From contig CAWAJR010000001.1 of the NCBI GenBank assembly GCA_963782465.1, positions 205,153 to 237,152 of the forward strand: a DNA stretch of 32,000 nt. Reading direction: 5' to 3'. Below are positions 7,581 to 27,046 of the stretch, piece after piece. A program made the translations under genes and the position numbers. Each line of letters starts with the position of its first letter. Positions within the stretch are counted from its first letter, which is position 1. The notes below the pieces were generated by a model that made no database searches, was not told the origin of the DNA, and saw only the letters and a list, made by a program, of their open reading frames with translations. The DNA is from an uncultured Actinomycetes bacterium. GTDB taxonomy: Bacteria > Actinomycetota > Acidimicrobiia > IMCC26256 > PALSA-610.

Positions 7581-7617
7581 CCACACCCGAACCTCGACCG
7601 CCGACAGGAGCCGTTGC

Positions 7618-8073
7618 ATGCCCGTCCATCCCGTGCCCACACCGAGTGCACCTCCCGTTGCCGGCCCGTACTCCCCGGCGGTGCGAGCCGGTGATTGGCT
7701 CGTCCTCGCGGGGCAGGTCGGCCTCGACCCCGCGACCGGGCGCCTCGCCGAGGGGGGCTTCGAAGCGCAGGCCCGCCAGGTCCTCGCCAACATCGCCGCG
7801 GTACTCGCCGATTGCGGCGCGACCATCTCCGACGTCGCCAAGACGACGATCTTCGTGACCGACATCAGCCACTTCCCTGCGGTCAACGCGGTGTACGCCG
7901 AAGCGTTCGGCGACCACCGGCCGGCGCGTTCGACGGTCGAGGTGAGCGCACTCCCGGGCGGGGCGCTCGTCGAGATCGAGGCTTGGCCCACCGCCCGGCC
8001 TGAACTCGTTTTCGTGAACCGAAAACGCCGAGAAGGGCACGTTCGCTACATCAAAACGAGTTCGGCGCGGTAG
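7618..8073 (+). CDS. ridA: RidA/YjgF/Endoribonuclease L-PSP family protein
   Basis: GPYSPAVRAGDWLVLAGQVGLDP...TTIFVTDISHF..VNAVYAEAFG...PARSTVEVSALPGGALVEIEA. GGAG lies 7 nt before ATG 7618. The track ORF's longer N-terminus is out of frame over the previous gene. Confidence 0.85.
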   Translation: MPVHPVPTPSAPPVAGPYSPAVRAGDWLVLAGQVGLDPATGRLAEGGFEAQARQVLANIAAVLADCGATISDVAKTTIFVTDISHFPAVNAVYAEAFGDHRPARSTVEVSALPGGALVEIEAWPTARPELVFVNRKRREGHVRYIKTSSAR

Positions 8074-10417: not shown

Positions 10418-11746
10418 TCACAAGGTCCCGAGGTACCGATCGATCTCGAACGGCGTGACGTAGGCCTTGTAGTCGGCCCATTCTTGCCGCTTGTTCGCGA
10501 TGAAGTACTCGAACACGTGCTCGCCGAGCGCCTCGGCCACCAGTTCGGAACCCTCCATCGCCTCGATCGCCTCGTGCAGCGACGTGGGCAACGACTGCAG
10601 CCCTTCGCTGTACCGCTCCTCGGTCGTGAGTTCGTAGATGTTGTTCGTCGCCTCGGGCGGAAGGTCGTAGCCCTCTTCGATGCCCTTCATGCCCGCGGCG
10701 AGGATCACGGAGTACGCCAGGTACGGGTTGCACGCGGGGTCGGGCGAACGGAACTCGATACGAGTGGAGTCGATCTTCGCCCGCTTCGGCGGCGGCACCC
10801 GGACGAGCGCCGAACGGTTGTTGCGCGCCCAGCAGATGTAGGCGGGTGCCTCGTAGCCGGGGATCAATCGCTTGTACGAGTTGACCCACTGGTTGGTCAC
10901 GGCGGTGATCTCACGCGCGTGCATCAGCAGGCCGGCGATGAAGTGCTTCGCGACTTTCGACAGCCCGTGCTCGTCGCCCGGATCGTGGAACGCGTTCACG
11001 TCGCCTTCGAAGAGCGAAAGATGCGAGTGCATGCCGGAACCGAACGCGCCCAACATCGGTTTCGGCATGAAGGTCGCGTACGCACCGTGGTCGTGCGCGA
11101 CCTCCTTGGTGATGAGCCGGAACGTCATGACGTTGTCGGCCATCGTCAGCGCGTCGGTGTAGCGCAGGTCGATCTCGTGCTGGCTCGGGCCGTTCTCGTG
11201 GAACGAGTACTCGACGGGGATGCCCATTGCCTCGAGACGCAACACGGTCTGCTTGCGCAATTGCGAACCGAGGTCGTGCGCGGTGAGGTCGAAGTAGCCG
11301 GCCTGGTCGAACGGTTCGACGCGCTCCGAATCGCGGAAGTAGAAGAACTCCATCTCCGGCCCGACGAAGAACGTGAACCCGCGCTCGCGGGCACGGTCGA
11401 GGTTGCGCTTCAAGACGCAACGCGGGTCGCCGTCGAACGGCTCACCCGCGAACGTTTGGATGTCGCAGAACATGCGCGCGACGGGTGCGTCGTCGGGTCC
11501 CTGGGTCGGCAGCAACTCGAACGTGTTCGGGTCGGGCTTCGCCAACATGTCGGACTCTTGGATGCGCGTATAGCCCTGGATCGTCGATCCGTCGAAGGTC
11601 ATGCCCTCCTCGAGTGCGACCTCGAGTTCCGCCGGCGTGATCTCGACCGACTTCAGGAAGCCGAGCACGTCGGTGAACCAGAGGCGCACGAAACGCACGC
11701 CGCGCTCTTCGACGGTGCGCAGCACGTATTCGAGTTGGCGCTCCAT
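10418..11746 (-). CDS. glnA2: Type I glutamine synthetase, short GlnA2-like paralog (442 aa)
   Basis: FVRLWFTDVLGFLKSVEITPAELE, GPEMEFFYF and SGMHSHLSLF are present, and the N-terminus resembles mycobacterial GlnA2 as I recall it. Confidence 0.9.
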   Translation of the reverse strand: MERQLEYVLRTVEERGVRFVRLWFTDVLGFLKSVEITPAELEVALEEGMTFDGSTIQGYTRIQESDMLAKPDPNTFELLPTQGPDDAPVARMFCDIQTFAGEPFDGDPRCVLKRNLDRARERGFTFFVGPEMEFFYFRDSERVEPFDQAGYFDLTAHDLGSQLRKQTVLRLEAMGIPVEYSFHENGPSQHEIDLRYTDALTMADNVMTFRLITKEVAHDHGAYATFMPKPMLGAFGSGMHSHLSLFEGDVNAFHDPGDEHGLSKVAKHFIAGLLMHAREITAVTNQWVNSYKRLIPGYEAPAYICWARNNRSALVRVPPPKRAKIDSTRIEFRSPDPACNPYLAYSVILAAGMKGIEEGYDLPPEATNNIYELTTEERYSEGLQSLPTSLHEAIEAMEGSELVAEALGEHVFEYFIANKRQEWADYKAYVTPFEIDRYLGTL

Positions 11747-11796
11747 TCAGGGCAGTTTACGGACCGGTACTCGCGCCCTCCCGAGCGGGCAAACCG

Positions 11797-11835
11797 GTTC
11801 ACAGAGCGTTTACAGTCGGGCAACGGCCGCGAAAC
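11797..11835. promoter_or_regulatory. Candidate GlnR box: four xxxAC pentamers at 11-nt spacing in the divergent glnA2/glnII promoter region
   Basis: gTTCAC-agagcg-TTTAC-agtcgg-GCAAC-ggccgc-GAAAC. This compares with the Streptomyces GlnR consensus gTnAc-n6-GaAAc-n6-GtnAC-n6-GAAAC. It is a motif match by eye only. Confidence 0.4.
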
Positions 11836-11964
11836 GGCCTACCGAAATGCTGCTCGGGCGGCGGCCGAGCCACGCGCGCGCGTGAGCCCCTTTCGACCTT
11901 GCAGCAAGCGTTGCGGTGCTCTGCCGCAGCGGATCATTCAACATCGCACCTCAGGAGTGAAACG

Positions 11965-12966
11965 GTGGCCTACAAGGCGGAGTACATCTGGCTCGACGGT
12001 ACGGAACCGACGGCGCGACTTCGATCGAAGACGAAGATCCTCGCCGACGGTGCCGACCTCCCGATCTGGGGGTTCGACGGTTCGAGTACCAACCAGGCGC
12101 CGGGGAGCAACTCCGACTGCGTGCTCAAGCCGGTGTTCTCGTGCCCCGACCCGTTGCGAGGCGGCGCGCACAAGCTCGTGCTGTGCGAAGTGCTGCTCAC
12201 CGACATGACGCCACACCCGACGAACACGCGCGCCATGCTCGCCCCGATCGCCGAGAAGTTCGCGGCCCAGGAGCCGCTGTTCGGGATCGAGCAGGAGTAC
12301 ACGTTCTTCAAGGACGAGCGTCCGTACGGCTTCCCGCTCGGTGGCGGGTTCCCGGCGCCGCAAGGCTTCTATTACTGCGGGATCGGCGCCGACGAAGTGT
12401 TCGGGCGCGACATCGTCGAAGCGCACATGGAGGCCTGCCTTGAAGCCGGCATCGGCATCTCGGGGATCAACGCCGAAGTGATGCCCGGCCAGTGGGAGTT
12501 CCAGGTCGGTCCGCTCAGCCCGCTCGACGTCTCCGACCACCTGTGGGTCGCCCGGTACCTCCTGTACCGCATCGCCGAAGAGTTCGACGTCGCCGCGACG
12601 CTCGACCCGAAGCCGGTCAAGGGCGACTGGAACGGTGCCGGCGCGCACACGAACTTCTCGACGAAGGCGATGCGCGAGTCGTACGACCCGATCATCAAGG
12701 CGTGCGAGGCGCTCGGCAAGCGGGCGAACGAGCACGTCGAGAGCTACGGCGCCGACATCGAGCACCGGCTCACCGGCTCCCACGAGACCGCCCCGTGGCA
12801 CGAGTTCAGCTACGGCGTGTCGAACCGGGGTGCATCGGTTCGTATCCCGTGGCAGGTCGAGAAAGACGGCAAGGGCTACATCGAGGACCGCCGTCCCAAC
12901 GCCAACATGGACCCCTACGTCGTGACCCGGCTCATCACCGACACGATCTGCTCGGCGTTGGCATAG
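11965..12966 (+). CDS. glnII: Type II (eukaryote-like) glutamine synthetase
   Basis: KAEYIWLDG..., GFDGSST, EQEYTFF, INAEVMPGQWEFQVGP, GAGAHTNFS and NRGASVRIP are present. GTG 11965 lies 7 nt after AGGAG. The protein is 333 aa. Confidence 0.9.
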   Translation: MAYKAEYIWLDGTEPTARLRSKTKILADGADLPIWGFDGSSTNQAPGSNSDCVLKPVFSCPDPLRGGAHKLVLCEVLLTDMTPHPTNTRAMLAPIAEKFAAQEPLFGIEQEYTFFKDERPYGFPLGGGFPAPQGFYYCGIGADEVFGRDIVEAHMEACLEAGIGISGINAEVMPGQWEFQVGPLSPLDVSDHLWVARYLLYRIAEEFDVAATLDPKPVKGDWNGAGAHTNFSTKAMRESYDPIIKACEALGKRANEHVESYGADIEHRLTGSHETAPWHEFSYGVSNRGASVRIPWQVEKDGKGYIEDRRPNANMDPYVVTRLITDTICSALA

Positions 12967-12976
12967 CCCGGAGGCT

Positions 12977-13010
12977 GAGCCCGGCGGGGGACCCCCCGCC
13001 CGCCGGGCTC
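12977..13010 (+). terminator. GC-rich hairpin after glnII
   Basis: gagcccggcgg pairs with ccgccgggctc, with an internal ggggg/ccccc pairing. It begins 11 nt after the glnII stop. Confidence 0.55.
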
Positions 13011-13134
13011 GGCGTTCGCTCGCCAATGAAGAGCCTGTGAAGCTGCCACCGCGATGTCGCCAAGAGGCGGCGCCGCGCGGCAGACTCGCGGCTGCTCACG
13101 CGCGGGTGTGAGCCGAACCGAAGGGGGTACGTGC

Positions 13135-14570
13135 GTGGAAGACCACACCGCCGGCGACGTCCTCAACCTCGTGCGGGACAGTGGGATCGAAGTCGTCGAC
13201 TTCCGGTTCTGCGACCTGCCCGGCCTGATGCAGCACTTCTCGGTGCCGGCACACGAGTTGACCGAAGACGGGTTCGAGGACGGCTACGGGTTCGACGGTT
13301 CGTCGATCCGCGGGTTCCAGGAGATCCAGGAATCCGACATGTTGCTGGTTCCCGACCCGGCGACCGCGGTCATCGACCCGTTCACGCAACACCCGACGAT
13401 CAACATCAACTGTTACGTGCGCGACCCGCTCACCGGTGAGCCGTACTCGCGCGACCCGCGCTACATCGTGTCGAAGGCGGCGTCGTACCTCGAGAGCACC
13501 GGCCTTGCCGACACCGCGTACTTCGGCCCGAAGCCGAGTTCTACATCTTCGACTCGGTGCGCTTCGACCAGAACCAGTTCTCCGGTTACTACTTCCTCGA
13601 CTCCGTCGAAGGGGTGTGGAACTCCGGGCGCGAGCGCGAGATCGACGGTTCACCCAACCTCGCGTACAAGCCTCGTTACAAAGAGGGCTACTTCCCGGTC
13701 CCGCCGATGGACCAGTTCCAGGACCTGCGTTCGGAGATGGTGCGCGTCCTCGAGTCGGTCGGCATCGAGATCGAGGTGCAACACCACGAAGTCGGCACCG
13801 CGGGCCAGGCCGAGATCGACATGCGCTTCGACACGATCACGCGCATGGCCGACAAGCTGATGCTCTACAAGTACGTCGTGAAGAACGTCGCGCGCAAAGC
13901 GGGTTACTCCGTGACGTTCATGCCGAAGCCGCTCTTCATGGACAACGGCAGCGGTATGCACGTGCACCAGTCGTTGTGGAAGGGCGGCGCGCCGCTCTTC
14001 TTCGACGAGACCGGCTACGCGGGGCTTTCCGACATGGCGCGCTGGTACATCGGCGGCCTGCTCGCGCACGCGCCGGCCATCCTCGCGTTTTCGAACCCGA
14101 CGACGAACTCGTACAAGCGGTTGGTGCCCGGATACGAAGCGCCGGTGAACCTCGTCTACTCGCAGCGCAACCGTTCCGCGTCGATCCGCATCCCGCTCTA
14201 CTCGAAGAGCCCGAAGGCGAAGCGCCTCGAGTTCCGTTGCCCCGACCCGTCGTGCAACCCGTACCTCGCGTTCTCCGCGATGTTGATGGCCGGGCTCGAC
14301 GGCATCCAGAACCGCATCGAACCGCCGACGCCGGTCGACCGCGACCTCTACGACCTGCCGCCCGAAGAGTTGGCGCAGGTCCCGCAGGTGCCGGGCTCGC
14401 TCGCCGACAGCCTCGCCGCGCTCGAGGCCGACAATGCGTTCCTCCTCAAAGGCGACGTGTTCACGCCCGACGTGATCGACACCTGGGTCTCGTACAAGAA
14501 GCTGCGCGAGATCGACCAGGTGCAACTCCGCCCGCACCCGTGGGAGTTCTACCTCTATTACGACATCTGA
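13135..14570 (+). pseudogene. glnA: Type I glutamine synthetase GlnA1-type (adenylylation-site Tyr motif present); frame broken by an apparent 1-nt deletion near 13528-13533
   Basis: Track ORFs 13054-13860 and 13557-14570 are the two halves of one gene. The sequence reads FGPKPSS where the family has [16 protein letters not shown], and restoring one g (ccg gaa gcc gag ttc) rejoins the frames. 1436+1 nt = 479 codons. GTG 13135 lies 7 nt after [16 protein letters not shown] is present. Confidence 0.85.
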
Positions 14571-14811
14571 TCGGGGTTCGCTGCTGACCACGAGCTCTCC
14601 GCGAAGACGCCGGCTGACCTGCGCAAACGCTTGTCGCCGTTTGCCGCAGGACGCCGGCGTTTCTCGTTGTCGTGTGCCATCGGGGCGCAAGTGGCCCGAT
14701 GGCGGAGCAGATCGGCAGCTATGGCGCGCATAGAACTACGTCGCTCGTCGCGAATGCTCGCGTTCGCAAGCGTCCGTGAACGGCACATCCCTGTCAGCCG
14801 TGCGTCATGTC

Positions 14812-15189
14812 CTAGGGCGTTCGACGCCCCGCGAGGCCCACGAGGTTTCCTTCGGAGTCACGGAAGAACGACATTTCCTCTGCTTCACCTGGTGGACCGA
14901 ACTGTCCCGACTCATCGACGTGGATCACGTGAGGTTCCGACTCGATGATCACGCCAGCGGTCCGGAGGCGGTCCGTCGTGGCGGCGACGTCGTCGACCCC
15001 GAGGTAGAGCAGTGAACGTGGCGCGCCCGACTCGAGAAGCAGGCGGGTTCCATCGATGCGGAAGAACGCGAGGCCGGGCGGATCGAAGCGAGCCACGAAC
15101 TCGAGCCCGATGACGTCTCGATAGAAGGCAACGGCGCGGTCCAAGTCTTCGACGCCAAGTGCGACCTGTCGGAGATGTGTGATCGACAT
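14812..15189 (-). CDS. VOC/glyoxalase-bleomycin resistance-dioxygenase family protein
   Basis: ITHLRQVALGVEDLDRAVAFYRDVIGLEF... in a 125-aa protein. Confidence 0.8.
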   Translation of the reverse strand: MSITHLRQVALGVEDLDRAVAFYRDVIGLEFVARFDPPGLAFFRIDGTRLLLESGAPRSLLYLGVDDVAATTDRLRTAGVIIESEPHVIHVDESGQFGPPGEAEEMSFFRDSEGNLVGLAGRRTP

Positions 15190-15199
15190 ATCAAAATAG

Positions 15200-15214
15200 T
15201 AGGTAGGCTACCTA
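15200..15214. promoter_or_regulatory. Perfect 7-1-7 palindrome TAGGTAG-G-CTACCTA in the 29-nt VOC/marR intergenic region; candidate MarR operator
   Basis: Read directly. It is centred between divergent starts at 15189 (minus) and 15219 (plus). Confidence 0.55.
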
Positions 15215-15218
15215 TCTA

Positions 15219-15662
15219 ATGCAACGCACCATCTCCGATGTCGCGGCCGGCCTGAACTCGGTGTCGATACACCTCGTGCGGCGTGCTCGCATCGCCGACG
15301 CGTCTCTCGGTGTTCCGCCCGGCCAGCTCTCTGCTCTCTCGGTGCTCGTGTTCGGTGGAGATCGGACCATTGCTCAGCTCGCCGATGCCGAGCAGGTCAC
15401 GAGTCCGACGATGACGCGAATCGTCGACGGGCTGGAACGAGCAGGCCTTGCCGAACGCCACAACCATCCGGACGACGGCCGAGCGACGATCGTTCGAGCT
15501 TCGAGGAAGGGTCGCCGAGTCATGGAGCGCGGGCGGCGGCAGCGCATCGATCTTCTGTCTGGGCTCCTGGCCCGGCTCGACGCCGACGAACTTCTTGCCG
15601 TCGCTCGTGCCGTCGAAGCCCTGGCCGAGACGATGAAAACGTCCGACTGGAGGCCTCGGTAG
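15219..15662 (+). CDS. MarR-family transcriptional regulator
   Basis: LSALSVLVFGGDRTIAQLADAEQVTSPTMTRIVDGLERAGLAERHNHPDDGRATIVRASRKG is a typical MarR wHTH. Confidence 0.85.
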   Translation: MQRTISDVAAGLNSVSIHLVRRARIADASLGVPPGQLSALSVLVFGGDRTIAQLADAEQVTSPTMTRIVDGLERAGLAERHNHPDDGRATIVRASRKGRRVMERGRRQRIDLLSGLLARLDADELLAVARAVEALAETMKTSDWRPR

Positions 15663-15725: not shown

Positions 15726-16159
15726 TCACGCCGCTCGTCGCGTGGGCGCGCGGTTCACCTTCTCGAAGTGTCGACGCAGCCAGCGGTGACGGCGACGGAA
15801 TGTCTGGGTCACGCTCGTCCGCATCAGCGCGTCGACGAGCGTTCCTCCGGACTCGATGACCAGCCGGTCGGTGAGAATCGTCGATCCACCGGCACCGACG
15901 GTTGCGGTGCGCTCGTGACGTGCAGTCCCGTTGAGCCGGCTCGTCGAACGCTCCACGAAGCGCCCCGATTCGAGTACCTCGAATGTCGTCGTGCGACGAT
16001 CGATCGTCGCGAACGGCCACAGTTCATCGTTCGCGCACTGACTCGATCGGCGTCGACGAGAGGTTCATCGTCGGTTGCTTGGAGGAGAGTGCGGACAACC
16101 AGGCATCGGAAGATCGCGGGCGGGGTCAGAGGCCGTCGGCAGGCGACGGCAAATGTCAT
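15726..16159 (-). pseudogene. SRPBCC (START/polyketide-cyclase-like) family protein; apparent 1-nt deletion near 16030-16045
   Basis: The N-terminus is in the frame of track ORF 15824-16159 (MTFAVACRRPLTPPAIFRCL...VDADRVSAR). The rest is in the frame of 15726-15956, extended upstream (NDELWPFATIDRRTTTFEVLESGRFVERSTS...). 434+1 nt = 145 codons. Its ATG overlaps the Clp-like stop (ATGA). The family call is by pattern only. Confidence 0.45.
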
Positions 16160-18275
16160 GCGGCCGTCCAGCGGAACGCGCCCTCGTGCACGTCACCGCG
16201 ATACTTGCCGGGTTGCAGCCCGACGAGCCGACCGAGCACGTGTGATTCGATGTTCCGCTCGATGTGGCGAGCTCCATAGGTAGGGCTGTAGCCGTCCCGC
16301 GCGATCCACTCGACGGCCGCTTCGCTGAGTTCGAGGTGCCAGCCCAGCTCCGACAGCGCCGCGAACGAGCGAGCGATCTCCGATTTCGCGATGTCGGCGA
16401 TGACGTCGGGGCCGAGAGGTTCGAACACGACGATGCCGTCGAGCCGGTTCACGAACTCGGGAGGCATGGCCCGTTCGATCGACGCGCGCACGGCGGCGGT
16501 GGTGGCGGCGGTCTCGGGTTCGGCGCCGAGGAAGCCGACCGGGTTCGCAGAGAACGCCCGCGCACCGAGGTTCGAGGTCATGATGATGACGGTGTCGCCG
16601 AAGCGGGCGACCCGTCCCCTCGAGTCGGTCATGCGCCCGTCGTCGAACACCTGGAGAAAGGCGTTCCACACGAGTGGGTGTGCCTTCTCGATCTCGTCGA
16701 GCAACACGATCGACACCGGCGCGTCGATGACTTTGGTGGTGAACCATCCCTGCGGCTCGTTCGAGCCGACATAGCCCGGGTGCGGGCCGTAGAGGCGGTT
16801 CACCGACCACTCCTCGGCGTACTCGCTCATGTCGAGCCGGATCATCCGGTCCTCGGCTCCGAACAGTTCCGCCGCGAGAGCCTTCGCGAGCGCGGTCTTC
16901 CCGACGCCAGTCGGCCCCGCGAACAGGAACACGCCGTTGGGCCGGTACGGGCGAAGGTCGAGCCGCGCGCTCGTGAGCGCGAGCCGCGCGGTGAGCACAT
17001 CGATCGCACGCTCCTGGCCCTTGACCCGTTCCCGCAGCCGCGCTCCGAGGTCGTCGGGCTCGACCGCCTTCCAGGTCGAAACGGCATCACCGAGCTCGAA
17101 ATCGTCGGGCACCACCTCGCGATGCCGGCGCAGGCGCGCGCGCAACGCCGCGCGGTCGAGGCGGTCGAGCAGCAGTCCGGGGTGCGCGCGGGTCTCGCCC
17201 GGTCGCCGCGGTTGCATCGCGATCTCGCGCATCGCACTTGGGATGTCGACCCGGTGGTGCCGGGCCAATGCCGGCGCGCGGCTTCGCGCGATTTCACGGA
17301 GCTGTGCGTCGTCGAGGGCCGGCAGGCGCACCATTTCGAGCTCGGCGTAGAGCTCGGGCTCCTCGGCTTCGAGTCGGTTCCGGAAGTTCTCGTCGAGGGT
17401 CGCGACCGACAGGATGTCGGGTCGACCGAGGATCGAACGGACCACACCTCGAAGGTCGAGGTCGACGGCCGGCGACGACAGGAGCAAGAGAACTTCGAGA
17501 TCGTCGAGGACGAGGATCGCGGTGTTGGGCGCACCGCCACGGATGGCTCGCAACTCGTCGGCGCGGTGCGCGCCGAGTACCGCTTCGGCGCGCACCCGCA
17601 CGACCTGGCGGTCGGCCAGCCCGATCCGTGCTCCTTCCGTGGCGAGGCGCGTCGCCAGCGCACGGATCGCGCTCGTTCGCCCGGCACCCGGTGGTCCGAT
17701 GATGCAGGGGCTCGACGGGGTGAACCGCGCGAGCTGTTCGAGCAGCTGGTCGACGACGGCGTCGAGACCGACCAGGCCCGCTTGCGGCCCGACGACCTCG
17801 AACGTCGCGGTCGGGTCGAGCTCGCGTTCGGGTACGGCAGGGGGTACCGAACTCCAGTCGATGCCGTCACCTTCGACGGCATCCTCGCCGAAGATCGCCC
17901 GGGCCGACATCGGCTCGTCGCGCGCCGACGCCGAGCCCTGCGACGGGGGAGCCGGGAGATCGAGTTCGGCGCGCACCGCGTCGCCCAACCGCTCGAACGG
18001 GTCGCCCCCTTCGGTTGCCGACCACTTCAGCATGTCGGTGCACTGCTCCGAGAGTTTCGGGGGGCTCGGCCCCTTCTGTAGCTCGGACCCGAGCCGCGCC
18101 AACTGTTCGTGAACACCTGGTCCGAACACGCGCGCCGCGCGATCGCGGTCGACGATGAGCATCGCGCGCGCAAGATGCACTGCGGTGACGGCGGCGTCAC
18201 CGTCGCGCGTGTCGCGAGCTCATCAGCGCAGACGAGTACGTCGGTCAGGACCGGCGGGAGTTCGATCTTGCTCAC
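16156..18275 (-). pseudogene. ClpC/ClpA-like double-AAA+ ATPase with a Clp_N-like N-terminus, degenerate first NBD and intact second NBD; apparent 1-nt deletion near 18203-18210
   Basis: NBD2 has FAGPTGVGKTALAKALA, VLLDEIEKAHP, IIMTSN and GARHIERNIE. NBD1 has IIGPPGAGRTS (Walker A Lys replaced by Arg) and LVLDDLE. A VGF tripeptide lies in the loop that carries the ClpP-docking motif in ClpC. The N-terminus MSKIELPPVLTDVLVCADELATR (track ORF 18027-18275) joins DGDAAVTAVHLARAMLIVDRD in the main frame. 2120+1 nt = 707 codons. Confidence 0.75.
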
Positions 18276-18690: not shown

Positions 18691-19638
18691 ATGCGCGAAG
18701 TCTTTTTGAGCTACTCGAGGGCCGACGCAGAATTCGTGCGCAAGCTCAGTGCTGGACTGCGCGATGGCGGCTACGACGTCTTTTACGACGAAGATCTGAC
18801 CGGCGGCCAAAGATGGTGGGACACACTGCTCGATCATGTAGAGCAGTGCGACGGGTTCATCCCGATCCTGAGCGAGAGCTATGTCGAATCCGAGCCCTGC
18901 CGGCGCGAGGCTTCCTATGCCGTGGCGCTCGGCAAGACGATGCTGCCCGTCACAACCGGAAGTTCGCAGATTCCTGGCCGCTTGCTGTTGGCGGAGATCG
19001 CCGAGGCACAGTGGGTGTCGTACGACCCACTGAAACCCGACACGATCTGGGCGCTGGTCCGGGCATTGAATCGGCTGCCCGCGCCGAGTCCGATGCCAGA
19101 GCCGTTACCGCGCAGACCCGAGGTCCCGATCTCGTATCTCGTGGAGTTCGACCAAATGATCGACTCCCAACAGGAGATGACCGCGGCCGAGCAACACGAT
19201 CTGGTCGATCGCCTCATCAGCAGTGCCGGCCGTGGCGATCCCGGCGACGTGCGACGACTTCTCCAGCGACTCCGTATGCGGCCAGACATCAGGGCGGTCG
19301 TCGCGGAGCGCATCGAAGCGTTTCTTGCGAGCCGGCTATCGAGCACTTCTGAGAAAACCCTTGAGGGCGCACCTGTGCCGGACGGAGGTGAGGCGCGCTC
19401 GACGCGAGGGGTGGATCGCATCCCGGATCCACCGCCGCACGCAGGCAAACAACTCCTCATTGAAGACGCCCGAGCTCGCGGCAGACCACTTACGTTGTGG
19501 GAACCTGTAAGGCCTCAAGAACCCGGTCCTGGCGCCATGCATTTCAATGACGCCTGGTGGGCCTGGTTGTGGTGGAACGAGAGCGCGGAGGCTTGGTACC
19601 GCTACGACGCTCACGAACACAGCTGGTTCCCACTCTGA
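18691..19638 (+). CDS. TIR-domain protein (N-terminal TIR, helical middle region, Trp-rich C-terminal tail)
   Basis: MREVFLSYSRADAEFVRKL...FIPILSESYVESEPCRREASYA. The putative catalytic Glu is E73 (gag, 18907-18909). The tail is HFNDAWWAWLWWNESAEAWYRYDAHEHSWFPL. GGGGG lies 7 nt before the ATG. G+C is modestly lower than in the flanks (33/60 at 18661-18720 by my count). Confidence 0.8.
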   Translation: MREVFLSYSRADAEFVRKLSAGLRDGGYDVFYDEDLTGGQRWWDTLLDHVEQCDGFIPILSESYVESEPCRREASYAVALGKTMLPVTTGSSQIPGRLLLAEIAEAQWVSYDPLKPDTIWALVRALNRLPAPSPMPEPLPRRPEVPISYLVEFDQMIDSQQEMTAAEQHDLVDRLISSAGRGDPGDVRRLLQRLRMRPDIRAVVAERIEAFLASRLSSTSEKTLEGAPVPDGGEARSTRGVDRIPDPPPHAGKQLLIEDARARGRPLTLWEPVRPQEPGPGAMHFNDAWWAWLWWNESAEAWYRYDAHEHSWFPL

Positions 19639-19874
19639 AATGTTCGAAGCATCGCGGCGAATTCGACGTCGCCAAGCGGGTATCCCGGCGAAACGATCGG
19701 TGTCGCTCGCGCGGCAGACCTGCGCGACCTCCTTCGGTAACTGACCGGTCTTGTCGATGAAGCGCGCCATGTAACCGCTGTGCAGTTGCGCAGTACCTGG
19801 GCGCGGCCGTAGGTTGCCGCGGGTCGTGCCGGGGTGGTTGCATTCGTCGTTCGTTCGCGCCGAGAGGCGCCGCC

Positions 19875-22173
19875 TTGCCGTCGCTCGCGGCGTTTCGAGC
19901 GCCATACAGCTGGTCCACTTACGTTTCCGGTTCGGGCGCGCGTAGGGTGCTCGGCGCGTTTCGCTATCGGCTTCTCGTCGCGCTGAGCGGGCCTGCCGGG
20001 CGCCAGGACGTCGTGCGGCGCGCTCGCTACGCCCTCATTGCGACGGTCGGCGCGCTGGCGACCGGGCTCGGGTTCTGGGGTTGGTTGCGCTATCGGACGG
20101 AGCATCCCGACCAACACCTCGACCTGATCGCGCTCGTTTACGGGACCTGGGCGCTGTTCGCGTGGGGGAGCAACATCGAACGGGTGCCGTGGCAGCTCGG
20201 TGTCGCCCGCGTACTCGCACCGCTCGTGACGGCCGGTGTGATCGTCGAGTTCGGCCTCGTCGCCGCCGCGAACCAACTGCGCAAGGCGGTGGCGAGACGC
20301 TCGATCGGGCACGTCGTCGTCGTCGGTCCGGCCGAGCGGGTACATGCGTACCTCCGTGACGACGACGGAAGGCCGCACCGGCCGCCCGTGCACGTCACCC
20401 CGACCGGCACTGCACCGGAGCCGGACACGATCGTGCTCGCGGGTGACGACGCCGCGACGTGGATCACCGAGACGAACGCCCGGCAAGCTCGAGCGCGTTG
20501 TGCTCGCTCTCGGCCGCGACGACCGCAACCTCGCCGCGCTGACGGCCGCGTTCGAGCACGACATCCCGCAACCGGGCGCCGAGCTCATCGTCGAGATCGA
20601 CGACCTCGCGCTGGCCCTGCGTCTCGCGGTGCAGCTCGTCGTGGAGCGGCCCGGAGCGTCGATCGAGGTGATCTGCGTCGACGAAGCGCGCGCCGCATTC
20701 GCGTCCGCACAGATGGTCGACGCCTTCGCTCGCGTCTTCGGCTTCCGCGACGCGCGTTCCGTTTCGATGGAGCCGGAGGCGATCGAGGCACTCGAGCGCG
20801 ATCTCTCCGATGAAGCCGCGAGCGCGAACGTTCCGGTGGTCGCCGTCGTCGGCGACGGCGTGTTGCCGCGCCTGATCGTCGAGCACCTTGCCGCCGGGCT
20901 CGGGAGCCTCGGCAGTCTTACGAGCCGAAGCCTGTTCCCGCTCGTGGTCGTGGAGCCGGATGCGAGGCGGCGAGCGGAACTCGAACGCATCATCTCCGAC
21001 CCGTCGAAGGTCGCGACTTCGTTCGCGCCAGAACATCGCGCGTTGCTGCACGAGTGGTCACCAGGCAGTTGGGAAGCCGGCACGCCGATCCTCGCGGTCG
21101 TCGACTACGTCGATCCCGGCGAGACGGCACGGCGGGCCGTCGAACTGGTGTGCACCCGGCCCCAGTCGACCGTCTGGGTCCCGGGCGAGCACGAGCTGCT
21201 GCCGGGCGACGAAGTCTCGGCCCAGGCCGGTGCGCCGCGGGGACACCTACACGTGTTGTCGCGCCGAGCGATGGAGGACGCCCGGTACCTCGTCGGGCCC
21301 TTTCACCGTGTGGCACAACTGCACAACGACGACGCCGACCTGCGCAACGAGTCGGAACGCGACCGCCTGCCCACCAGGCCGGGCGCCGGCGAGGAACGGC
21401 AACCGATCGAGCACTGGGCACCGGCACAGGTTCGGTCGGGTGTTCGCACGCTCGAACGATGCGGGTGGAACGTCGTCCCGGCGCTCGGCGTCGCGTGGAC
21501 GGCGGAGCCGCGTGTCGAAGCGCTGCTCGACGAGCACACGCGGCGCGAGCTGGCCGGCACGGCGGGCGGCGCGCTCCGCGACGGCGACCAGCTCGTGCAT
21601 TGGCTCGCCCAGGTAGGCCTCGCGGTGACACGCGCGCCAGACGACCACGATCGACGGAACGGAAGGCTCGACCGTATGGCCGACGTTGCAATGCCCGAAG
21701 ACGATGCCATCGAGGTCATGGCCAGGCTCATCCATGGCAACTACATCGAGGCCCGCAAGGCGGAAGGCGAGTTCGACGCGGAACACCCGGCGATGAAGCC
21801 GTGGGAGCAGTTGTCGGCCAAGCTCCGCGGCCAGAACCGCGACCAGGCCCGGAACAACGTGCTGAAGCTCGCGTCGATCGGTCTGCGCGTCGTGCCGGCC
21901 GCGGGGGGCGAAGCCGAACCCGTGGGGCTGACCGAAGACCAGGTGCTCGTCCTCGCGCGGCGCGAACACGAGCGCTGGGGGACGCAGAAGCGCGCGCAGG
22001 GCTACCGGTACGGTCAGGAGCGAATGGACACCGGCGACAAACAGCATCCCGATCTCGTCGCGTGGGAGGAGCTCACCGACGCCGACCGGGAGAAGGACAT
22101 CGCGCCGGTGCGCCAGATCGTCGCCGTGCTGGCCGAGGCGGGCTACACGGTCGTGCCGGCTGCCACCGAGTAG
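19875..22173 (+). pseudogene. Membrane protein: about 3 TM helices, two TrkA-N/RCK-like Rossmann-type domains and two RyR (ryanodine-receptor) domain repeats; apparent 1-nt insertion near 20478-20486
   Basis: Track ORFs 19875-20813 and 20344-22173 join at ...IVLAGDDAATWITETNA / KLERVVLALGRDDRNLAAL, a continuous TrkA_N-like pattern. Candidate TM helices: YALIATVGALATGLGFWGWL, LDLIALVYGTWALFAWG and VLAPLVTAGVIVEFGLVAAA. RyR repeat 2 is LARREHERWGTQKRAQGYRYGQERMDTGDKQHPDLVAWEELTDADREKDIAPVRQIVAVLAEAGYTV; repeat 1 is MARLIHGNYIEARKAEG...KPWEQLSAKLRGQNRDQARNNVLKLASIGLRV. The start is uncertain (TTG 19875 or GTG 19947). Confidence 0.65.
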
Positions 22174-22225
22174 CGCATCGACCGCGCGAGTCGAGTTGCT
22201 CGCGCTTCACCGATCGGGGGGGGAC

Positions 22226-24634
22226 ATGCCAAAGCGGATCTTCATCAGCCACCGAGTCGACGACGCGGGCGGGACGGCCGGGCGCATCTACGACGCACTC
22301 GTGCAGGAGTTCGGCAAGGAACGGGTGTTCTTCGATGGCGAGAGCCTTCACCGTGGCGACAACTGGAGAGAGAAGATCGAGCAGACCCTCGACGAGACCG
22401 ACGCGATGATCGTGGTGATCGGGCGAGGGTGGCTGGAGGAGTTCGACGCTCGCCGCAGCCAGGGAACGCGCGATGTGCACAAGCAAGAACTCGAAGCGGC
22501 GCTCAAGCGTCAGCTGCCAATGTTCCTGACCCTCGTGGACGGCGCGGGAATGCCCTCGAGGGACCTGCTGCCGCGGGGCCTCAAGAAGCTGAACGAGATC
22601 GAGGCGCAGCCTCTCCCGCAGAAGGGCTTCCAGCACTACGTCGAACGCCTCGTCCAGGACATCGAAGAACGGCTCCGGGAAGGCTCGGGCGGGGACGACC
22701 ACGATCCGGCGCGCCCGGTGCACGGGACCGTCACCCTGACCGTGGCGCCCTACGGGGCCGCCGACTACCTCGGCATCGCGACTGCGGCCCGAGACGCACC
22801 CGAGGGCGCAACCATCCTCGTGAAACCCGGCGTCTACCTGGAGCCGGTGGTTATCAACCGGCCACTTCAGATCGTGGCGGACGGAGACCGCGACGATGTC
22901 GTCCTGGAAGTGGAGGACGGCGCCGCGATAACGAGTACGGCGCAAACTGGCCGGGTGCTGGGGCTGAGGATCGCGTCTGCCGCGCGCCAGGACGGCGTCG
23001 GAGTCCACGTCGCTTCCGGTCGCCTGCACGTCGAGCAGTGCACGGTCTCGGGGAACTCGCGCGAAGGGTCGATCGGGGTGCTGGTCGACGGGGCCGACGC
23101 GCGCCCGGTGTTCCGCGACTGCCATGTCCACGACTGCGAGACCGGGGTGGTCGCGCGCGGCGCCGCGACACCGCGCTTCGAGTCGTGCGAGATCTCTGCG
23201 ATCGTAGGCGCCGGGGTCGAGGTGTCGGATGGAGCCGATCCCGCGTTCCACGCGTGCCGGGTCCACGACATCGGGACCAACGGCATCGCTGTCGACGGCA
23301 GCGGTACCGGGACCTACGAAGACTGCGACATCACGGCAGCAAACGGGCCCGCGGTCGCCGCCGGAGATGGTGCCGACCCCGTCTTCCGAGCGCTCACCCT
23401 GAGGGGGTTGGCGAAGAACGGTGTGTTCGTGGCGGCCGGCGGCCGCGGAACGTACGAAAACTGCCGTATCGAAGGGTGCACCACCGACAGCTACGCGGCC
23501 GTGTCGATCGCCGAGGGTGCCGAGCCGGTGTTCCGCGACCTCATGGTGGTCGGCGGTGCGTCGAACGGCGTCGAGGTTCGCCCCGGCGGCAGGGGCCTCT
23601 TCGAGCGCTCCGAGATCAGCGGAACGCAATCAACTGCGATCTCCGTCGGCGACGGTGCCGATCCTACGTTTCATACGCTCACACTCAGCGGGCTCGGTGC
23701 CAACGGGTGTGTCATCGCCGCCGGCGGACGGGGAACGGTCGAAGACTGCCGTATCGAAGGGTGCACCACCGGGGGGTACCCGGCGGTGTCGGTGGGTGAC
23801 GGTGCGGAGCCGGCGTTCCGCAACCTCGTCATTACCGGCGGCCAGTCGTACGGGGTGTGGGCGCGTGAAGGCAGCCGCGGAACGTTCGAAGACTGCCGGG
23901 TCTCCGGTTCCGGCGACGCGGGGGTCCGCATCGAGGCAGGTGCCGACCCGCGGTTCGGAACGCTTGTCCTCGCACGACTGGGCCAGAACGGGGTCGTGGT
24001 CGCGGCCAACGGGCGCGGCACGTTCGAACACTGTCGTATCGAAGGGTGCACCACCGGCAAGTACCCGGCGGTGTGGGTGGGGAACGGCGCCGACCCGGTG
24101 TTCCGGCGGCTCGTCGTCGCTGGCGGGAAGTCGAACGGGGTGTACGCCTCTGAGGGCAGCCGCGGGACGTTCGAAGACTGTGAGATCGCTGCGATCGAGG
24201 TGGCTGCGATCTGGGTCGCGGCCGCCGCGGACCCGACGTTCCGACAGGTCCGCGTCCACGACGGGCGTTTGTTCGGCGTGTTTGTCGACGGTGGGCGGGG
24301 CCGGTTCGAGCGCTGCGAGATCTTCAGAACGCTGCTGTCCGCTTTCAAGGTGACGAAGGAGGGAGACCCGACCGTCGTGGAGGCGCACATCCACGACATC
24401 GGCCCTCAGGTGGCCGCGCGGTCGGGTTCCGCCGGACGGCGGCTGACGAGGCGCGCGTTGGCGGCCGCCTTCTCCGCGCACGCCATCGCCTCGGATGGCA
24501 AGGGAACCTTCCTCGACTGCACGATTTCGGCGACGCACGACGCGCCGATCTCCCCCAAGACGGTGGCGAACGGCCAGTGCCGGATCGAGCGTTGCACGGT
24601 GGACGGTGAACTGTGGACCAGTGGTGGGACGTGA
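22226..24634 (+). CDS. TIR-domain protein fused to a long right-handed parallel beta-helix (PbH1/pectate-lyase-like) repeat region
   Basis: MPKRIFISHRVDD...DAMIVVIGRGWLE...DVHKQELEAALKRQLPMFLTLVDGAGMP is TIR_2-like, with putative catalytic E88 (gaa, 22487-22489). About 640 aa of G-A-D-P-x-F / G-R-G-T-F-E-D-C periodic repeats follow. ATG 22226 lies 2 nt after a G8 run. Confidence 0.8.
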   Translation: MPKRIFISHRVDDAGGTAGRIYDALVQEFGKERVFFDGESLHRGDNWREKIEQTLDETDAMIVVIGRGWLEEFDARRSQGTRDVHKQELEAALKRQLPMFLTLVDGAGMPSRDLLPRGLKKLNEIEAQPLPQKGFQHYVERLVQDIEERLREGSGGDDHDPARPVHGTVTLTVAPYGAADYLGIATAARDAPEGATILVKPGVYLEPVVINRPLQIVADGDRDDVVLEVEDGAAITSTAQTGRVLGLRIASAARQDGVGVHVASGRLHVEQCTVSGNSREGSIGVLVDGADARPVFRDCHVHDCETGVVARGAATPRFESCEISAIVGAGVEVSDGADPAFHACRVHDIGTNGIAVDGSGTGTYEDCDITAANGPAVAAGDGADPVFRALTLRGLAKNGVFVAAGGRGTYENCRIEGCTTDSYAAVSIAEGAEPVFRDLMVVGGASNGVEVRPGGRGLFERSEISGTQSTAISVGDGADPTFHTLTLSGLGANGCVIAAGGRGTVEDCRIEGCTTGGYPAVSVGDGAEPAFRNLVITGGQSYGVWAREGSRGTFEDCRVSGSGDAGVRIEAGADPRFGTLVLARLGQNGVVVAANGRGTFEHCRIEGCTTGKYPAVWVGNGADPVFRRLVVAGGKSNGVYASEGSRGTFEDCEIAAIEVAAIWVAAAADPTFRQVRVHDGRLFGVFVDGGRGRFERCEIFRTLLSAFKVTKEGDPTVVEAHIHDIGPQVAARSGSAGRRLTRRALAAAFSAHAIASDGKGTFLDCTISATHDAPISPKTVANGQCRIERCTVDGELWTSGGT
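23369..24223 (+). repeat. Three tandem 285-bp (95-aa) units inside the beta-helix coding region
   Basis: The units start at 23369, 23654 and 23939, each opening with ggtgccgac/t (GADP). Each contains tgccgtatcgaagggtgcaccacc (or tgtcgtatcgaagggtgcaccacc), encoding CRIEGCTT. Confidence 0.8.
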
Positions 24635-24650
24635 GCCAGGGGGCGCGCCA

Positions 24651-25766
24651 ATGAGTTACCGCGACCGTATCGACGCGCCCGGGCCGAAGCGGCTCCTCGC
24701 GATCGACGGCGGCGGGATTCGCGGGATCGTCGCGCTGGAGATTCTCGCCCGCCTCGAACGCGAGCTGCGCGTGGCGACCGGCCGGCCCGACCTCGTCCTC
24801 GCAGACGTGTTCGACTACATCGGCGGCACGAGCACAGGCGCGATCATCGCGGCCTGCCTTTCGCTCGGCTTCACGTCGCAGCGCATCCTCGACGTCTACC
24901 TCGAGCGAGGCGCGGAGATGTTCGATCGCGCCCGGCTCCTCGAGCGGCTGCACCACCAGTACGACGACGACCCGCTCGAAGCAATCTTGAAGGCCGAGCT
25001 CGGCTCCGACACCACGTTCGGCAGTGATCGGCTGCGCACCTTGCTGCTCCTCGTGCTGCGCAACGCGACGACCGACTCGCCGTGGCCACTGAGCAACAAC
25101 CCCCGGGCCGCGTTCAACGATCCCGAACTCGAAGACTGCAACCTCGACCTACCGCTGTGGCAACTGGTCCGGGCGAGCACCGCCGCCCCCACCTACTTCG
25201 CGCCCGAGACGGTTCGGCTCGGGTCTCGCGACTTCGTGTTCGTCGACGGCGCGGTCACGCCCTTCAACAACCCGGCGTTACAGCTGTTCCTGATGGCGAC
25301 CGTCGACGCCTACCGCCTCGGTTGGCCCACCGGCGAGGATCGGCTTCTTCTCGTCTCGGTCGGCACGGGCAACACCGCGCACCCGCGGCCGGATCTCGAG
25401 GAGGACGACATGCACGTCCTCTTCCACGCGAAGGCGACGCCCGCCGCGCTCATGTTCTCGACCGCCGCGCAGCAAGACATGCTCTGCCGGCTTCTCGGTA
25501 CCTGCCGGTCCGGCGAACCGCTCGATTCCGAGGTCGGCGACCTGAGGGCGAGCGCGCCGCTGCTCGCCGATCCGCTCTTCACGTACCTGCGGTACGACCT
25601 CGAGCTGACCGAACGCAACCTCGAACGGTTGGGATGTGGGAATGTGAACGTGCGCGACGTCGTAGCCATCGATTCGGTCGACCACCTCGATGATCTCTGC
25701 CGTGTGGGTCGTGCCATCGCCGAGCTGCAAGTCGACATCTCGCACCTCGACGGATTTACCGACTGA
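24651..25766 (+). CDS. Patatin-like phospholipase
   Basis: Motifs: AIDGGGIRG oxyanion hole; GGTSTG, i.e. GxSxG with Ser61 (agc, 24831-24833); and FVDGAV, the catalytic Asp. ATG 24651 lies 16 nt after the TIR-beta-helix stop, with AGGGGG 8 nt upstream. Confidence 0.9.
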   Translation: MSYRDRIDAPGPKRLLAIDGGGIRGIVALEILARLERELRVATGRPDLVLADVFDYIGGTSTGAIIAACLSLGFTSQRILDVYLERGAEMFDRARLLERLHHQYDDDPLEAILKAELGSDTTFGSDRLRTLLLLVLRNATTDSPWPLSNNPRAAFNDPELEDCNLDLPLWQLVRASTAAPTYFAPETVRLGSRDFVFVDGAVTPFNNPALQLFLMATVDAYRLGWPTGEDRLLLVSVGTGNTAHPRPDLEEDDMHVLFHAKATPAALMFSTAAQQDMLCRLLGTCRSGEPLDSEVGDLRASAPLLADPLFTYLRYDLELTERNLERLGCGNVNVRDVVAIDSVDHLDDLCRVGRAIAELQVDISHLDGFTD

Positions 25767-25780
25767 CCCCTTCACGTCGC

Positions 25781-26635
25781 TCAGTCGTACCGGTAGTCGG
25801 TGCAGTAGAGAGCCGACGCGGCCCCGACGAACACGGCGACCGCGACCGTGGCGATCGCGAACTCGGTGGCGATCGCGAGGTCCAGCCCGACCGCCGTCGC
25901 TCCTTCGCCGAACGCAGCCATCTGCAGGAAGCCCCCGACGATCGCGAGCGGCACGGCGCAGACAGCCACGATGCGAACGAACACGAGCACGGTGCGCCCC
26001 TGCACCTCCTTCCACGAGAGCACGAGGCACTGTGCCCAGCCGAGCCCGGGGATGAGGTCGTCCTCGGCCACGGCGATCGGCACGACGAAGCAGGTACGGG
26101 TGACGAGCGCGACCGCGAGGAGCTCCGCGACCACCGTCGCGGGGAGCGCGGCCCAGAACGACCACTTGTCGACGACGGTCGCGGGCACGAAGACGATCGC
26201 GAACACTGCGGCGAGCACGACGGACCAGGCGGCGAAGACGCGCGGCGCGCGGCGCAGCGCGTGCAGGAGGTTGGAGCGCGTCGGGAGCCGGTCCCCGGCG
26301 CGCCGGGAGACGGCGATCGAGAAGTACGTCTGTGCGAACGCCGTCATCGCCCCCCACGACAACAAGACCACACGCAGCTCGAACGTCCAGTTCGCGAATG
26401 TCCGGTCGACGGCTCGGTGCAGGCGGGCGCGCAGGACGTCGAACGTGCCGAACGCGCCGAGCCGGTATGCGTGGCCGATCTTCGTGACGTCGTGGGGGCT
26501 CGCCAGGTGTGGGTTGACGAACAGGTGTTTGAACACCCACCCGACCATGGCGTCCATCACGACCCAGACGACGAACGTCGCCACGAAGAGAGACGGCAGT
26601 GCACCGCACATCGCGAAGAACGCCCGCACGATCAC
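25781..26635 (-). CDS. Polytopic (about 6 TM) hypothetical membrane protein, convergent with the patatin gene
   Basis: Several long hydrophobic segments (e.g. ALPSLFVATFVVWVVMDAMVGWV, VFAAWSVVLAAVFAIVFVPA, VLVFVRIVAVCAVPLAIVGGF). The start is uncertain (GTG 26635/26629, ATG 26611). The track ORF's N-terminus up to 27028 would overlap the divergent small gene. Confidence 0.55.
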   Translation of the reverse strand: MIVRAFFAMCGALPSLFVATFVVWVVMDAMVGWVFKHLFVNPHLASPHDVTKIGHAYRLGAFGTFDVLRARLHRAVDRTFANWTFELRVVLLSWGAMTAFAQTYFSIAVSRRAGDRLPTRSNLLHALRRAPRVFAAWSVVLAAVFAIVFVPATVVDKWSFWAALPATVVAELLAVALVTRTCFVVPIAVAEDDLIPGLGWAQCLVLSWKEVQGRTVLVFVRIVAVCAVPLAIVGGFLQMAAFGEGATAVGLDLAIATEFAIATVAVAVFVGAASALYCTDYRYD

Positions 26636-26827
26636 GTGCTCGCGTGCTCGACTCCGTGCTCCGCCCGTCACGACAGTCCGATGCTTCCATCTGATCGCCG
26701 CCGACGCCAATGCGTAACGGCACCGATGAGCGTTCGGGAGTGGCGTCGGCAACGGGGCCGCCGCCCTGCGCCCTTGATGATCCGGTAGCCACGCTGGCGA
26801 AGGCGTGATGCAGCTAGCGTCGCCGGC

Positions 26828-27046
26828 ATGCCGAAACACGAGATCGAAGCCGGCCTCCCCGCGCATGAGATCGTCAACGCCGACGTGACGATCGCGGTCA
26901 AGAGCGACGGCAAGCTGCTCGGTGAACTGCTGGTCAGCCGCGGGTCGGTCGATTGGCGGCCGGCCCGCCATCAGTACTCGGTCCGGCTGAGTTGGGAGAA
27001 GTTCGCGCGGCTCATGGAACGGGTGCACGACGGCGAGATCCGTTAA
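26828..27046 (+). CDS. Small (72 aa) soluble hypothetical protein
   Basis: MPKHEIEAGLPAHEIVNADVTIAVKSDGKLLGELLVSRGSVDWRPARHQYSVRLSWEKFARLMERVHDGEIR has a balanced, protein-like composition. I am not certain of any family. Confidence 0.5.
   Translation: MPKHEIEAGLPAHEIVNADVTIAVKSDGKLLGELLVSRGSVDWRPARHQYSVRLSWEKFARLMERVHDGEIR

Follow-up and report, generated by a model that had tools for sequence, protein, structure and literature searches.

Closest described systems and the locus

Types I to IV of Thoeris, in which TIR genes (ThsB) adjoin signal-activated effectors, are established. Here we describe a cluster of four genes at positions 18691-25766 of a 32,000-nucleotide (nt) stretch of DNA, which is of high G+C, which we call the window when we mean the whole of it and which we take to be actinobacterial. 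With a probability of roughly 0.58, we read this cluster as a Thoeris-like TIR signalling defence module with two membrane-directed effectors, an RyR-domain protein of channel-like build and a patatin. Yirmiya et al. 2025 (10.64898/2025.12.03.692087; all our statements on this source refer to its accessible part) added Thoeris types V-XI and further predicted types. They put on record several ThsB genes with two effectors in one Thoeris operon and 29 putative effector classes, including phospholipases and the ion-channel type X, and they predicted beside TIR a SLOG-patatin variant, which gave no defence in E. coli. The configuration of TIR plus patatin is already predicted in that work, while the term RyR is absent from its main text, its Table S1 being legible as far as DUF2270. 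Within the searchable literature, a host RyR-domain effector is undescribed.

The four open reading frames (ORFs) run in one direction, with gaps of 236 (or 308), 52 and 16 nt between them, just as an earlier note on this DNA had described:

18691-19638, plus strand: TIR-A, 315 amino acids (aa), Pfam TIR_2
19947-22173, plus strand: gene 2, RCK/RyR membrane protein, its frame broken here; alternative TTG start at 19875
22226-24634, plus strand: TIR-B, 802 aa, Pfam TIR_2 and Beta_helix
24651-25766, plus strand: CapV-like patatin phospholipase, 371 aa, Pfam Patatin

The locus resembles Thoeris in that TIR genes adjoin candidate effectors, that these are predicted to be membrane-directed and one of them to carry a dedicated domain for an ADP-ribose (ADPR) derivative, and that several TIRs share an operon with two effectors. 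Unlike Thoeris, the four proteins carry by Pfam no SLOG, Macro, DUF2270, DUF6650, SLATT, TPR/CMP-hydrolase or HIT domain, the candidate sensor is an RyR Repeat12 module, and the TIRs carry large repeat domains. Thoeris type X (ThsK) is alike by description only, since a TIR is paired there with a predicted ion-channel effector, whereas its TIRs fall, in the accessible part of the source, in a cluster of type II-like ThsB proteins of Bacillus and Vibrio; the plasmid relatives of the type X TIR all proved to be macro-domain (type II) loci. As the earlier note had expected, no known-system model covers the locus. PADLOC gave nothing for gene 2 and weak matches only for the TIRs (ThsB1 at 17.9 bits), and NCBIfam gave nothing at its curated cutoffs (Thoeris type III ThcB4 at 26 bits against 220); no Thoeris model reached its threshold.

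Phage RyR-domain proteins bind or cleave the 2' and 3' isomers of cyclic ADPR (2'cADPR and 3'cADPR), as two preprints of 2026 show (PMC13232231; 10.64898/2026.06.04.730250). One of them, RyDEP, is the RyR protein gp78 of mycobacteriophage DyoEdafos, with the contacts H75, W78, H100 and D117, and RyDEP-related phage proteins have nanomolar affinity for the cADPR signals (PMC13232231). Another, RyR Tad, is gp68 of Pectobacterium phage CB1, which binds 3'cADPR with a dissociation constant of 43 nM and also binds 2'cADPR and canonical cADPR, through the contacts H129/W132, H154/K147 and K170/D171 (10.64898/2026.06.04.730250). Gene 2 shares with both the family PF02026, the same fold and the same contact residues (H, W, H and K-D). 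However, RyDEP and RyR Tad are small soluble phage homodimers that destroy or sequester the signal, whereas gene 2 is host chromosomal, has a 741-aa membrane/RCK body, carries an intramolecular tandem with one canonical pocket and lies beside TIR genes. Host RyR-domain proteins beside TIR genes are not discussed in PMC13232231 or in 10.64898/2026.06.04.730250.

The fourth gene invites comparison with CapV of the cyclic-oligonucleotide-based antiphage signalling systems (CBASS), with which it shares the patatin fold, a similar size and an intact Ser-Asp dyad. In contrast to CBASS, no CD-NTase was found among the scanned ORFs of the window, and this patatin subfamily adjoins TIR genes.

A candidate cADPR-type pocket in the second RyR repeat of gene 2

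We found the RyR family of Pfam (PF02026) in gene 2 at E 1.3e-15 (57.9 bits vs 27.4). On the protein repaired as described below, Pfam calls two RyR stretches, in agreement with the two repeats seen before. In the PDB the module matches, by sequence, Repeat12 of RyR1-3 and an RyR protein of B. thetaiotaomicron. Ligand residues were mapped by the numbering given in PMC13232231 and 10.64898/2026.06.04.730250 together with the shared RyR motifs. Repeat 2 reads EH-ER-W ... KQHP ... REKD, which corresponds to H674, W677, H700, K716 and D717, with the identity and the spacing of the phage contacts. Across 33 host homologues from related loci the H, W, H and D of repeat 2 are kept in 32, 31, 29 and 31 sequences, respectively. 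Repeat 1, on the other hand, is degenerate and retains only H..Y, and a kept repeat 2 next to such a repeat 1 points to one canonical pocket per tandem. When the RyR module was compared with phage genomes by tblastn, nothing was found at E 1e-3, and weak matches only appeared at E up to 10.

With Repeat12 of animal ryanodine receptors the module shares homology in both sequence and fold, a pocket for adenine nucleotides lined by the same residues, and a tie to cADPR physiology (PMC13232231). Animal Repeat12 has a regulatory role at the periphery of a Ca2+ channel of 2 MDa, and cADPR binding there is unproven, whereas in gene 2, a small bacterial protein, it would be the primary ligand sensor. 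Two structures of human RyR3 Repeat12 in the PDB (6uhh and 9l9b) hold ATP or ADP. Other proteins join an RyR module to a protein kinase and TrkA_N (P0273 and P0275) or to a RelA/SpoT domain (P0276), and these fusions suggest that the module senses nucleotides in further signalling contexts as well.

Linkage of RyR proteins and of the patatin to TIR genes

An exhaustive HMMER search for relatives of gene 2 returned 12,770 representatives at E <=1e-3 and 2,610 at E <=1e-30, most of them ~560-620 aa long and with the order transmembrane helices (TM)-TrkA_N-RyR. The rarity of the family that a word-indexed search had indicated, with its 5-6 relatives, was overturned by this result. Scanning one genome per species for the RyR module turned up 37 loci, spread over many phyla and including two archaea. 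For the counts of linkage we used the 22 RyR-anchored genome loci whose flanks reach 2 kb or more on either side and, of the 80 patatin-anchored metagenome loci, the 21 with adequate flanks. Half of the 22 RyR-anchored loci (11) have a TIR gene no more than 2.5 kb away, and in 8 it is within 400 nt, while the 174 kb of flank more than 5 kb away held 0 TIR matches. Ten of these TIR calls beside RyR genes were checked by Pfam and all ten were upheld, their extra domains being WD40, TPR, SIR2-like or without assignment. A similar picture emerged around the patatin, where a TIR is found within 2.5 kb in 11/21 loci, vs 2 matches in 96 kb of far flank, and where the TIR partners carry FGE-sulfatase, YARHG, CHASE2, RHS or unassigned domains.

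A triad made of a TIR with a repeat sensor, an RyR protein and this patatin is present in five independent loci, namely the window itself (W), L001, L010, L041 and L043, and the sensor domains of the TIRs differ among them (beta-helix, WD40, PQQ and STAND-TPR). In related loci the place of TIR-B is taken by TIR-WD40, TIR-PQQ or TIR-STAND-TPR; L041 has the order TrkA_N-RyR, then patatin, then TIR-STAND-TPR, and L043 has TrkA_N-RyR, patatin and TIR-PQQ. The patatin of the window is 65-73% identical to those of the other four triad loci. RyR proteins accompany only its closest patatins, of at least 63% identity (W, L001, L010, L041, L043 and L049), the exception being a more distant pair in L003. 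Moreover, P0098, a protein of 753 aa, has a TIR (aa 2-110) fused N-terminally to a TM-TrkA_N-RyR body, which unites TIR and RyR in one polypeptide. Orthologues of these genes therefore stand together in other genomes, with TIR genes strongly enriched beside both the RyR and the patatin genes, as the interpretation proposed in the earlier note would have it. The RyR/RCK protein and the patatin are each independently linked to TIR and also co-occur in one clade, a pattern to be expected of two effectors that answer the same TIR product, and such pairs are on record for Thoeris.

Some of these loci hold further genes of related kinds. In L010, positions 11618-12109 encode a second, RyR-only protein of 163 aa, which overlaps the patatin stop by 4 nt and has the TM-TrkA_N-RyR gene upstream. 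Near the triad of L043 lie a TPR-S plus guanylate-cyclase protein (13497-15293) and a KAP NTPase. In L045 a protein of the TPR-S ("sensor") kind (6579-7898), whose N-terminus is weakly TIR-like, stands directly upstream of a patatin of the same subfamily, and in L046 a 186-aa protein is followed by the patatin.

The same data bear on a different division of labour, in which the patatin would be the sole effector and the RyR protein would serve the host as a signal sink or off-switch, either a sponge or a RyDEP-like glycosidase, that buffers a leaky TIR or resets the system. Such a role would liken it to the ring nucleases of type III CRISPR. In L004, L025 and L010 a small RyR-only gene does stand beside a TIR gene or the patatin, and the patatin subfamily occurs together with TIR in many loci that lack an RyR protein; yet in many other loci (such as L014, L016, L029 and L034) a TIR accompanies a TM-TrkA_N-RyR protein with no patatin or other candidate effector seen. 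At the level of residues, repeat 2 keeps the positions of the RyDEP catalytic dyad, His and Asp, but most of the phage homologues assayed have the same residues and bind the signal without cleaving it (PMC13232231). A membrane module joined to a double RCK ring, moreover, exceeds the needs of a sink, and we consider this division of labour unlikely.

Predicted architecture of the gene 2 protein

An AlphaFold (AF2) monomer model of the gene 2 protein built on 100 family members reached a predicted local distance difference test score (pLDDT) of 86 and a predicted TM-score (pTM) of 0.82, with the membrane part at pLDDT 87-97; an earlier model built on 8 sequences had a pLDDT of 70. The model divides the protein into the following parts:

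19995-20300, plus strand: membrane module, with TM1 (aa 17-52), a short helix (60-72), a loop and TM2 (82-118); AF2
20313-21258, plus strand: two Rossmann/RCK-like domains, aa 123-242 and 297-437; AF2 and Foldseek
21298-21633, plus strand: extra alpha/beta domain, aa 451-562; AF2 elements H451-473 to E558-562
21676-22170, plus strand: tandem RyR repeats, aa 577-741 (AF2 repeats 585-737); Pfam RyR

Foldseek searches of the PDB matched the TrkA gating ring (4j9v_B, E 2.8e-5, 404 columns), GsuK (4gx5, E 7e-4, 540 of 548 columns) and Aplysia Slo1 (E 1.6e-4, 648 columns), and the alignments to GsuK and Slo1 take in the membrane module of gene 2. The same searches matched human RyR3 Repeat12, including its ATP-bound and ADP/dantrolene-bound forms, and the Bt-hRyR chimera, with target TM-scores (TMt) up to 0.72. 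Among viral models, a phage "potassium channel domain" protein ranked first, and RyR-domain proteins of phages came next, the latter with TMt of 0.53-0.70. The order of TM1, short helix and TM2, taken together with these Foldseek matches, suggests the body plan of a 2TM channel with a double RCK ring and a C-terminal Repeat12 module. In the model the short helix between TM1 and TM2 is better described as of re-entrant type, so the three transmembrane helices that had first been proposed for gene 2 give way to TM1, this helix and TM2. The extra alpha/beta domain is an insertion found in the window protein, P0002 and P0003, the three closest members of the alignment (A3, columns 801-900).

The two Rossmann/RCK-like domains, which had also been proposed, are supported by structure (4j9v and 4gx5), although Pfam calls no TrkA_N on the gene 2 protein itself. 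Among 80 relatives of gene 2, Pfam finds TrkA_N in 71 and RyR in 78. The likeness to GsuK, MthK, Slo1 and the TrkA ring extends, in the monomer model, over TM1, short helix, TM2 and the two RCK/Rossmann domains. Gene 2 differs from these proteins in having neither a TVGYG filter nor a GxGxxG in its first Rossmann domain, and in the C-terminal RyR module that is added to it. A K+-selective channel was ruled out on the missing TVGYG and the absence of a Pfam channel match. The membrane residues that are invariant in the family are L70, F71, L84, A87, R88 and P92. At the start of TM2 (aa 84-92 of P0277) the relatives show a nearly invariant L-x-x-A-R-x-L-A-P, and a conserved Arg at this place is unusual for the inner helix of a channel.

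We regard it as doubtful, if well worth entertaining, that gene 2 and its ~600-aa relatives are ion channels opened by TIR-made cADPR isomers via the Repeat12 module. If this were true, the pairing of cADPR and ryanodine receptor in animals would descend from, or be mirrored by, a prokaryotic immune effector, and the family would make up at least one new Thoeris type, represented in Actinomycetota, Chloroflexota, Desulfobacterota, Acidobacteriota and archaea, with a channel and a CapV-like lipase co-activated in the patatin-containing subtype.

The two TIR proteins and the patatin

TIR-A matches Pfam TIR_2 at E 7e-21 (75 bits vs a cutoff of 28; domain aa 4-111), and its Glu73 falls in the same alignment column as the catalytic Glu of BcThsB, so this protein is indeed a TIR that keeps its glutamate, as had been claimed. 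Its C-terminal ~190 aa gave no Pfam match and have a Trp-rich tail at their end. In TIR-B, an N-terminal TIR_2 domain (E 1.2e-9, 39 bits vs 28) is fused to ~640 aa of right-handed beta-helix repeats (Beta_helix, E 3.8e-57, 5 stretches), and Pfam thereby upholds the composition given earlier; the beta-helix is presumed to be the sensor part. Glu88, also put forward before, is the probable catalytic glutamate of TIR-B, and its assignment is plausible only, for it follows an insertion of ~10 residues and MAFFT puts it outside the catalytic column.

The patatin was found by Pfam at E 1.2e-25, and its best PADLOC match is the CBASS phospholipase effector, at E 3.5e-39. The NCBIfam model CBASS_lipase gave 101 bits, under its cutoff of 200. 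The motifs GGGIRG, GTSTG (with Ser61) and D199-G-A occupy invariant columns in an alignment of 15 members of the subfamily (A8), which agrees with the intact triad reported previously. This subfamily is very common and highly conserved, with 8,000 matches at E <=1e-20, of which the best 120 are 54-100% identical and mostly ~372 aa long, and we flag it as a probable TIR-signal-activated lipase.

Given their composition, the TIR proteins could also be self-contained sensor-NADases that deplete NAD+ and make no second messenger, in which case the RCK/RyR protein would be a metabolic sensor (of ATP, ADP, NAD(H) or ADPR) that tunes ion flux, and the patatin would be independent. TIRs with WD40, TPR, STAND or beta-helix domains resemble single-protein sensor-effectors, and standalone TIRs are treated as NAD+ depleters in the accessible part of 10.64898/2025.12.03.692087; but TIR genes recurrently stand tight against those of RyR proteins and of this patatin, with even a fusion on record, as signal-effector pairs do. 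As regards the ligand, NAD(H) and ATP are the classical ligands of RCK domains (TrkA holds ATP-gamma-S in 4j9v), and the ATP or ADP in human Repeat12 and the joining of RyR modules to kinase and RelA/SpoT domains would also fit a metabolic sensor. However, the residues conserved in gene 2 are exactly the cADPR-isomer contacts of two crystal structures, and depletion of NAD+ as the whole of the mechanism seems to us quite unlikely.

Proposed mechanism and its weighing

In the Thoeris-like module that we favour, a phage cue would be sensed by the beta-helix of TIR-B, and possibly also by the C-terminal region of TIR-A, and from NAD+ the TIR domains would then make a signal derived from ADPR, most probably one of its cyclic isomers. 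This signal would dock in the canonical pocket of repeat 2 in the RyR Repeat12-like module of gene 2 and, via the tandem RCK ring, would gate or remodel the K-channel-like membrane module, so that ion gradients collapse. In parallel, the CapV-like patatin would be activated and would degrade membrane lipid, and the infected cell would in the end stop growing or die. The data above establish the domains, motifs, fold, residue conservation and neighbourhood statistics; what signal is made, how gene 2 is gated, that the patatin is switched on and that the cluster defends its host are our inference.

If the proposal is right, it supplies the host side of the phage RyR story of 2026, in that bacteria would receive their own TIR signal through the very domain that phages carry. 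A new and widespread effector class for TIR immunity would then also be defined, to judge by the 2,610 representatives at E <=1e-30, and there would be a small, tractable bacterial model for the long-open question of whether and how cADPR-type ligands act on the Repeat12 of ryanodine receptors.

Several observations weigh against the proposal. The kinase and RelA/SpoT fusions, together with the ATP or ADP in human Repeat12, mean that the ligand could be an ordinary adenine nucleotide. The filter loop of gene 2 reads LFAWGSNIERVP and not TVGYG, Pfam ion-channel families are found in 0 of the 80 relatives, and the pore was assigned from a monomer model. About half of the RyR loci and about half of the patatin loci with adequate flanks are without a nearby TIR, gene 2 is frameshifted in this assembly, and no integrase, transposase or known defence system stands among the window genes around the cluster. 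The Thoeris-like interpretation has nonetheless survived the refutation tests that could be run in silico (profiles, known-system models and co-localisation), with defence and NAD-derived signalling still inferred.

Reading frame of gene 2 and an intact allele

Gene 2 is split across two frames in the window. The break was located by DNA alignment against a JGI contig (L048), which encodes P0277, a mate of gene 2 in its 90%-identity cluster; this near-identical metagenomic allele is intact and 741 aa long, flanked upstream by a TIR-A orthologue and downstream by the beginning of TIR-B. At the break the window reads GCTCGAGCGC and L048 reads GCTCAGCGC, a difference of a single extra G:

20491, plus strand: extra G within the first RCK-like domain, a frameshift in gene 2; DNA alignment vs L048

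The intact product has 741 aa and starts at the GTG at 19947. The protein read from the repaired frame stays colinear with P0002 and P0003 through the junction. Placing the frameshift in the CCC run at 20479-20481 was overruled by the L048 alignment. Gene 2 had previously been described as one ORF at 19875-22173; its domains were confirmed, but the single ORF was not. Possibly the copy of gene 2 in this assembly is inactive, or possibly the extra G is an error of the assembly. Beyond the 90%-identity cluster of gene 2, its nearest homologue (47% identity; L002, 1942-3980) likewise consists of two ORFs in different frames, with the break between the body and the RyR module, as either a frameshift or a natural split. 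The spacer from the TIR-A stop to the GTG of gene 2 (19639-19946, 308 nt) has the same length in the L048 allele, and it contains only minus-strand ORFs, which are unconvincing.

Composition and flanking genes

The G+C of the window is ~0.68 overall. The stretch of TIR-A is at 0.63-0.65, the other genes of the cluster are at 0.68-0.71, and the flanks span 0.64-0.76; the glnA genes of the window are also at 0.63-0.65. The lower G+C that had been ascribed to the cluster relative to its flanks is therefore not borne out, and we rejected a dip in G+C as a signal of an island, since only the TIR-A stretch is low. The setting of a defence island that the earlier note had suggested did not hold either, because the flanking genes are housekeeping or regulatory (glutamine synthetases, MarR, glyoxalases, TetR and GGDEF-EAL) and include no mobile-element gene.

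These surroundings are compatible with a module that has no anti-phage role, acting instead in actinobacterial stress, developmental or programmed-cell-death signalling, or with a decaying remnant in this strain. The window has neither a mobile-element gene nor a known defence system, and its G+C is not atypical; related loci, however, lie near a PIN toxin, a KAP NTPase, a Schlafen-like helicase, an integrase and ISL3, even if some members of the patatin subfamily stand among housekeeping genes (L046). Decay would agree with the frameshift in gene 2 and with the split homologue in L002, but a second frameshift in the window, in a glnA-like glutamine synthetase gene (~13526), means that the insertion in gene 2, and indels here in general, may be assembly errors. 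The TIR sensor domains, moreover, vary by locus, which we read as typical of immune receptors, and phages carry RyR-domain counter-measures. A role outside defence is, to our mind, the most improbable of the explanations weighed here.

Two neighbouring genes were considered as parts of the system and set aside. A ClpB-like double-P-loop AAA+ protein (16156-18180, minus strand) is divergent from TIR-A, and its AAA_2 domain matches PADLOC DolB (E 2e-25) and candidate PDC-M37B (E 4e-28); the gene is not kept in related loci, and the DolB match is a generic AAA_2 match only. On the other side, an ORF of 415 aa (25781-27028, minus strand) is convergent on the patatin and has a good coding signature (G+C at third codon positions 0.85); it had no Pfam, NCBIfam or PADLOC match, and it was dropped because it is not conserved in related loci, where no counterpart was found.

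Further upstream, three genes of the glutamine-synthetase family stand in a row at 10418-14570, namely 10418-11746 (minus strand), 11677-12966 (plus strand, a weaker match) and 13030-14570 (plus strand, split). The last of these is a type-I glutamine synthetase with a frameshift near 13526-13530, which leaves its beta-grasp N-domain and its catalytic domain in different frames; the break reads GGCCCGAAG, and probably one C is missing.

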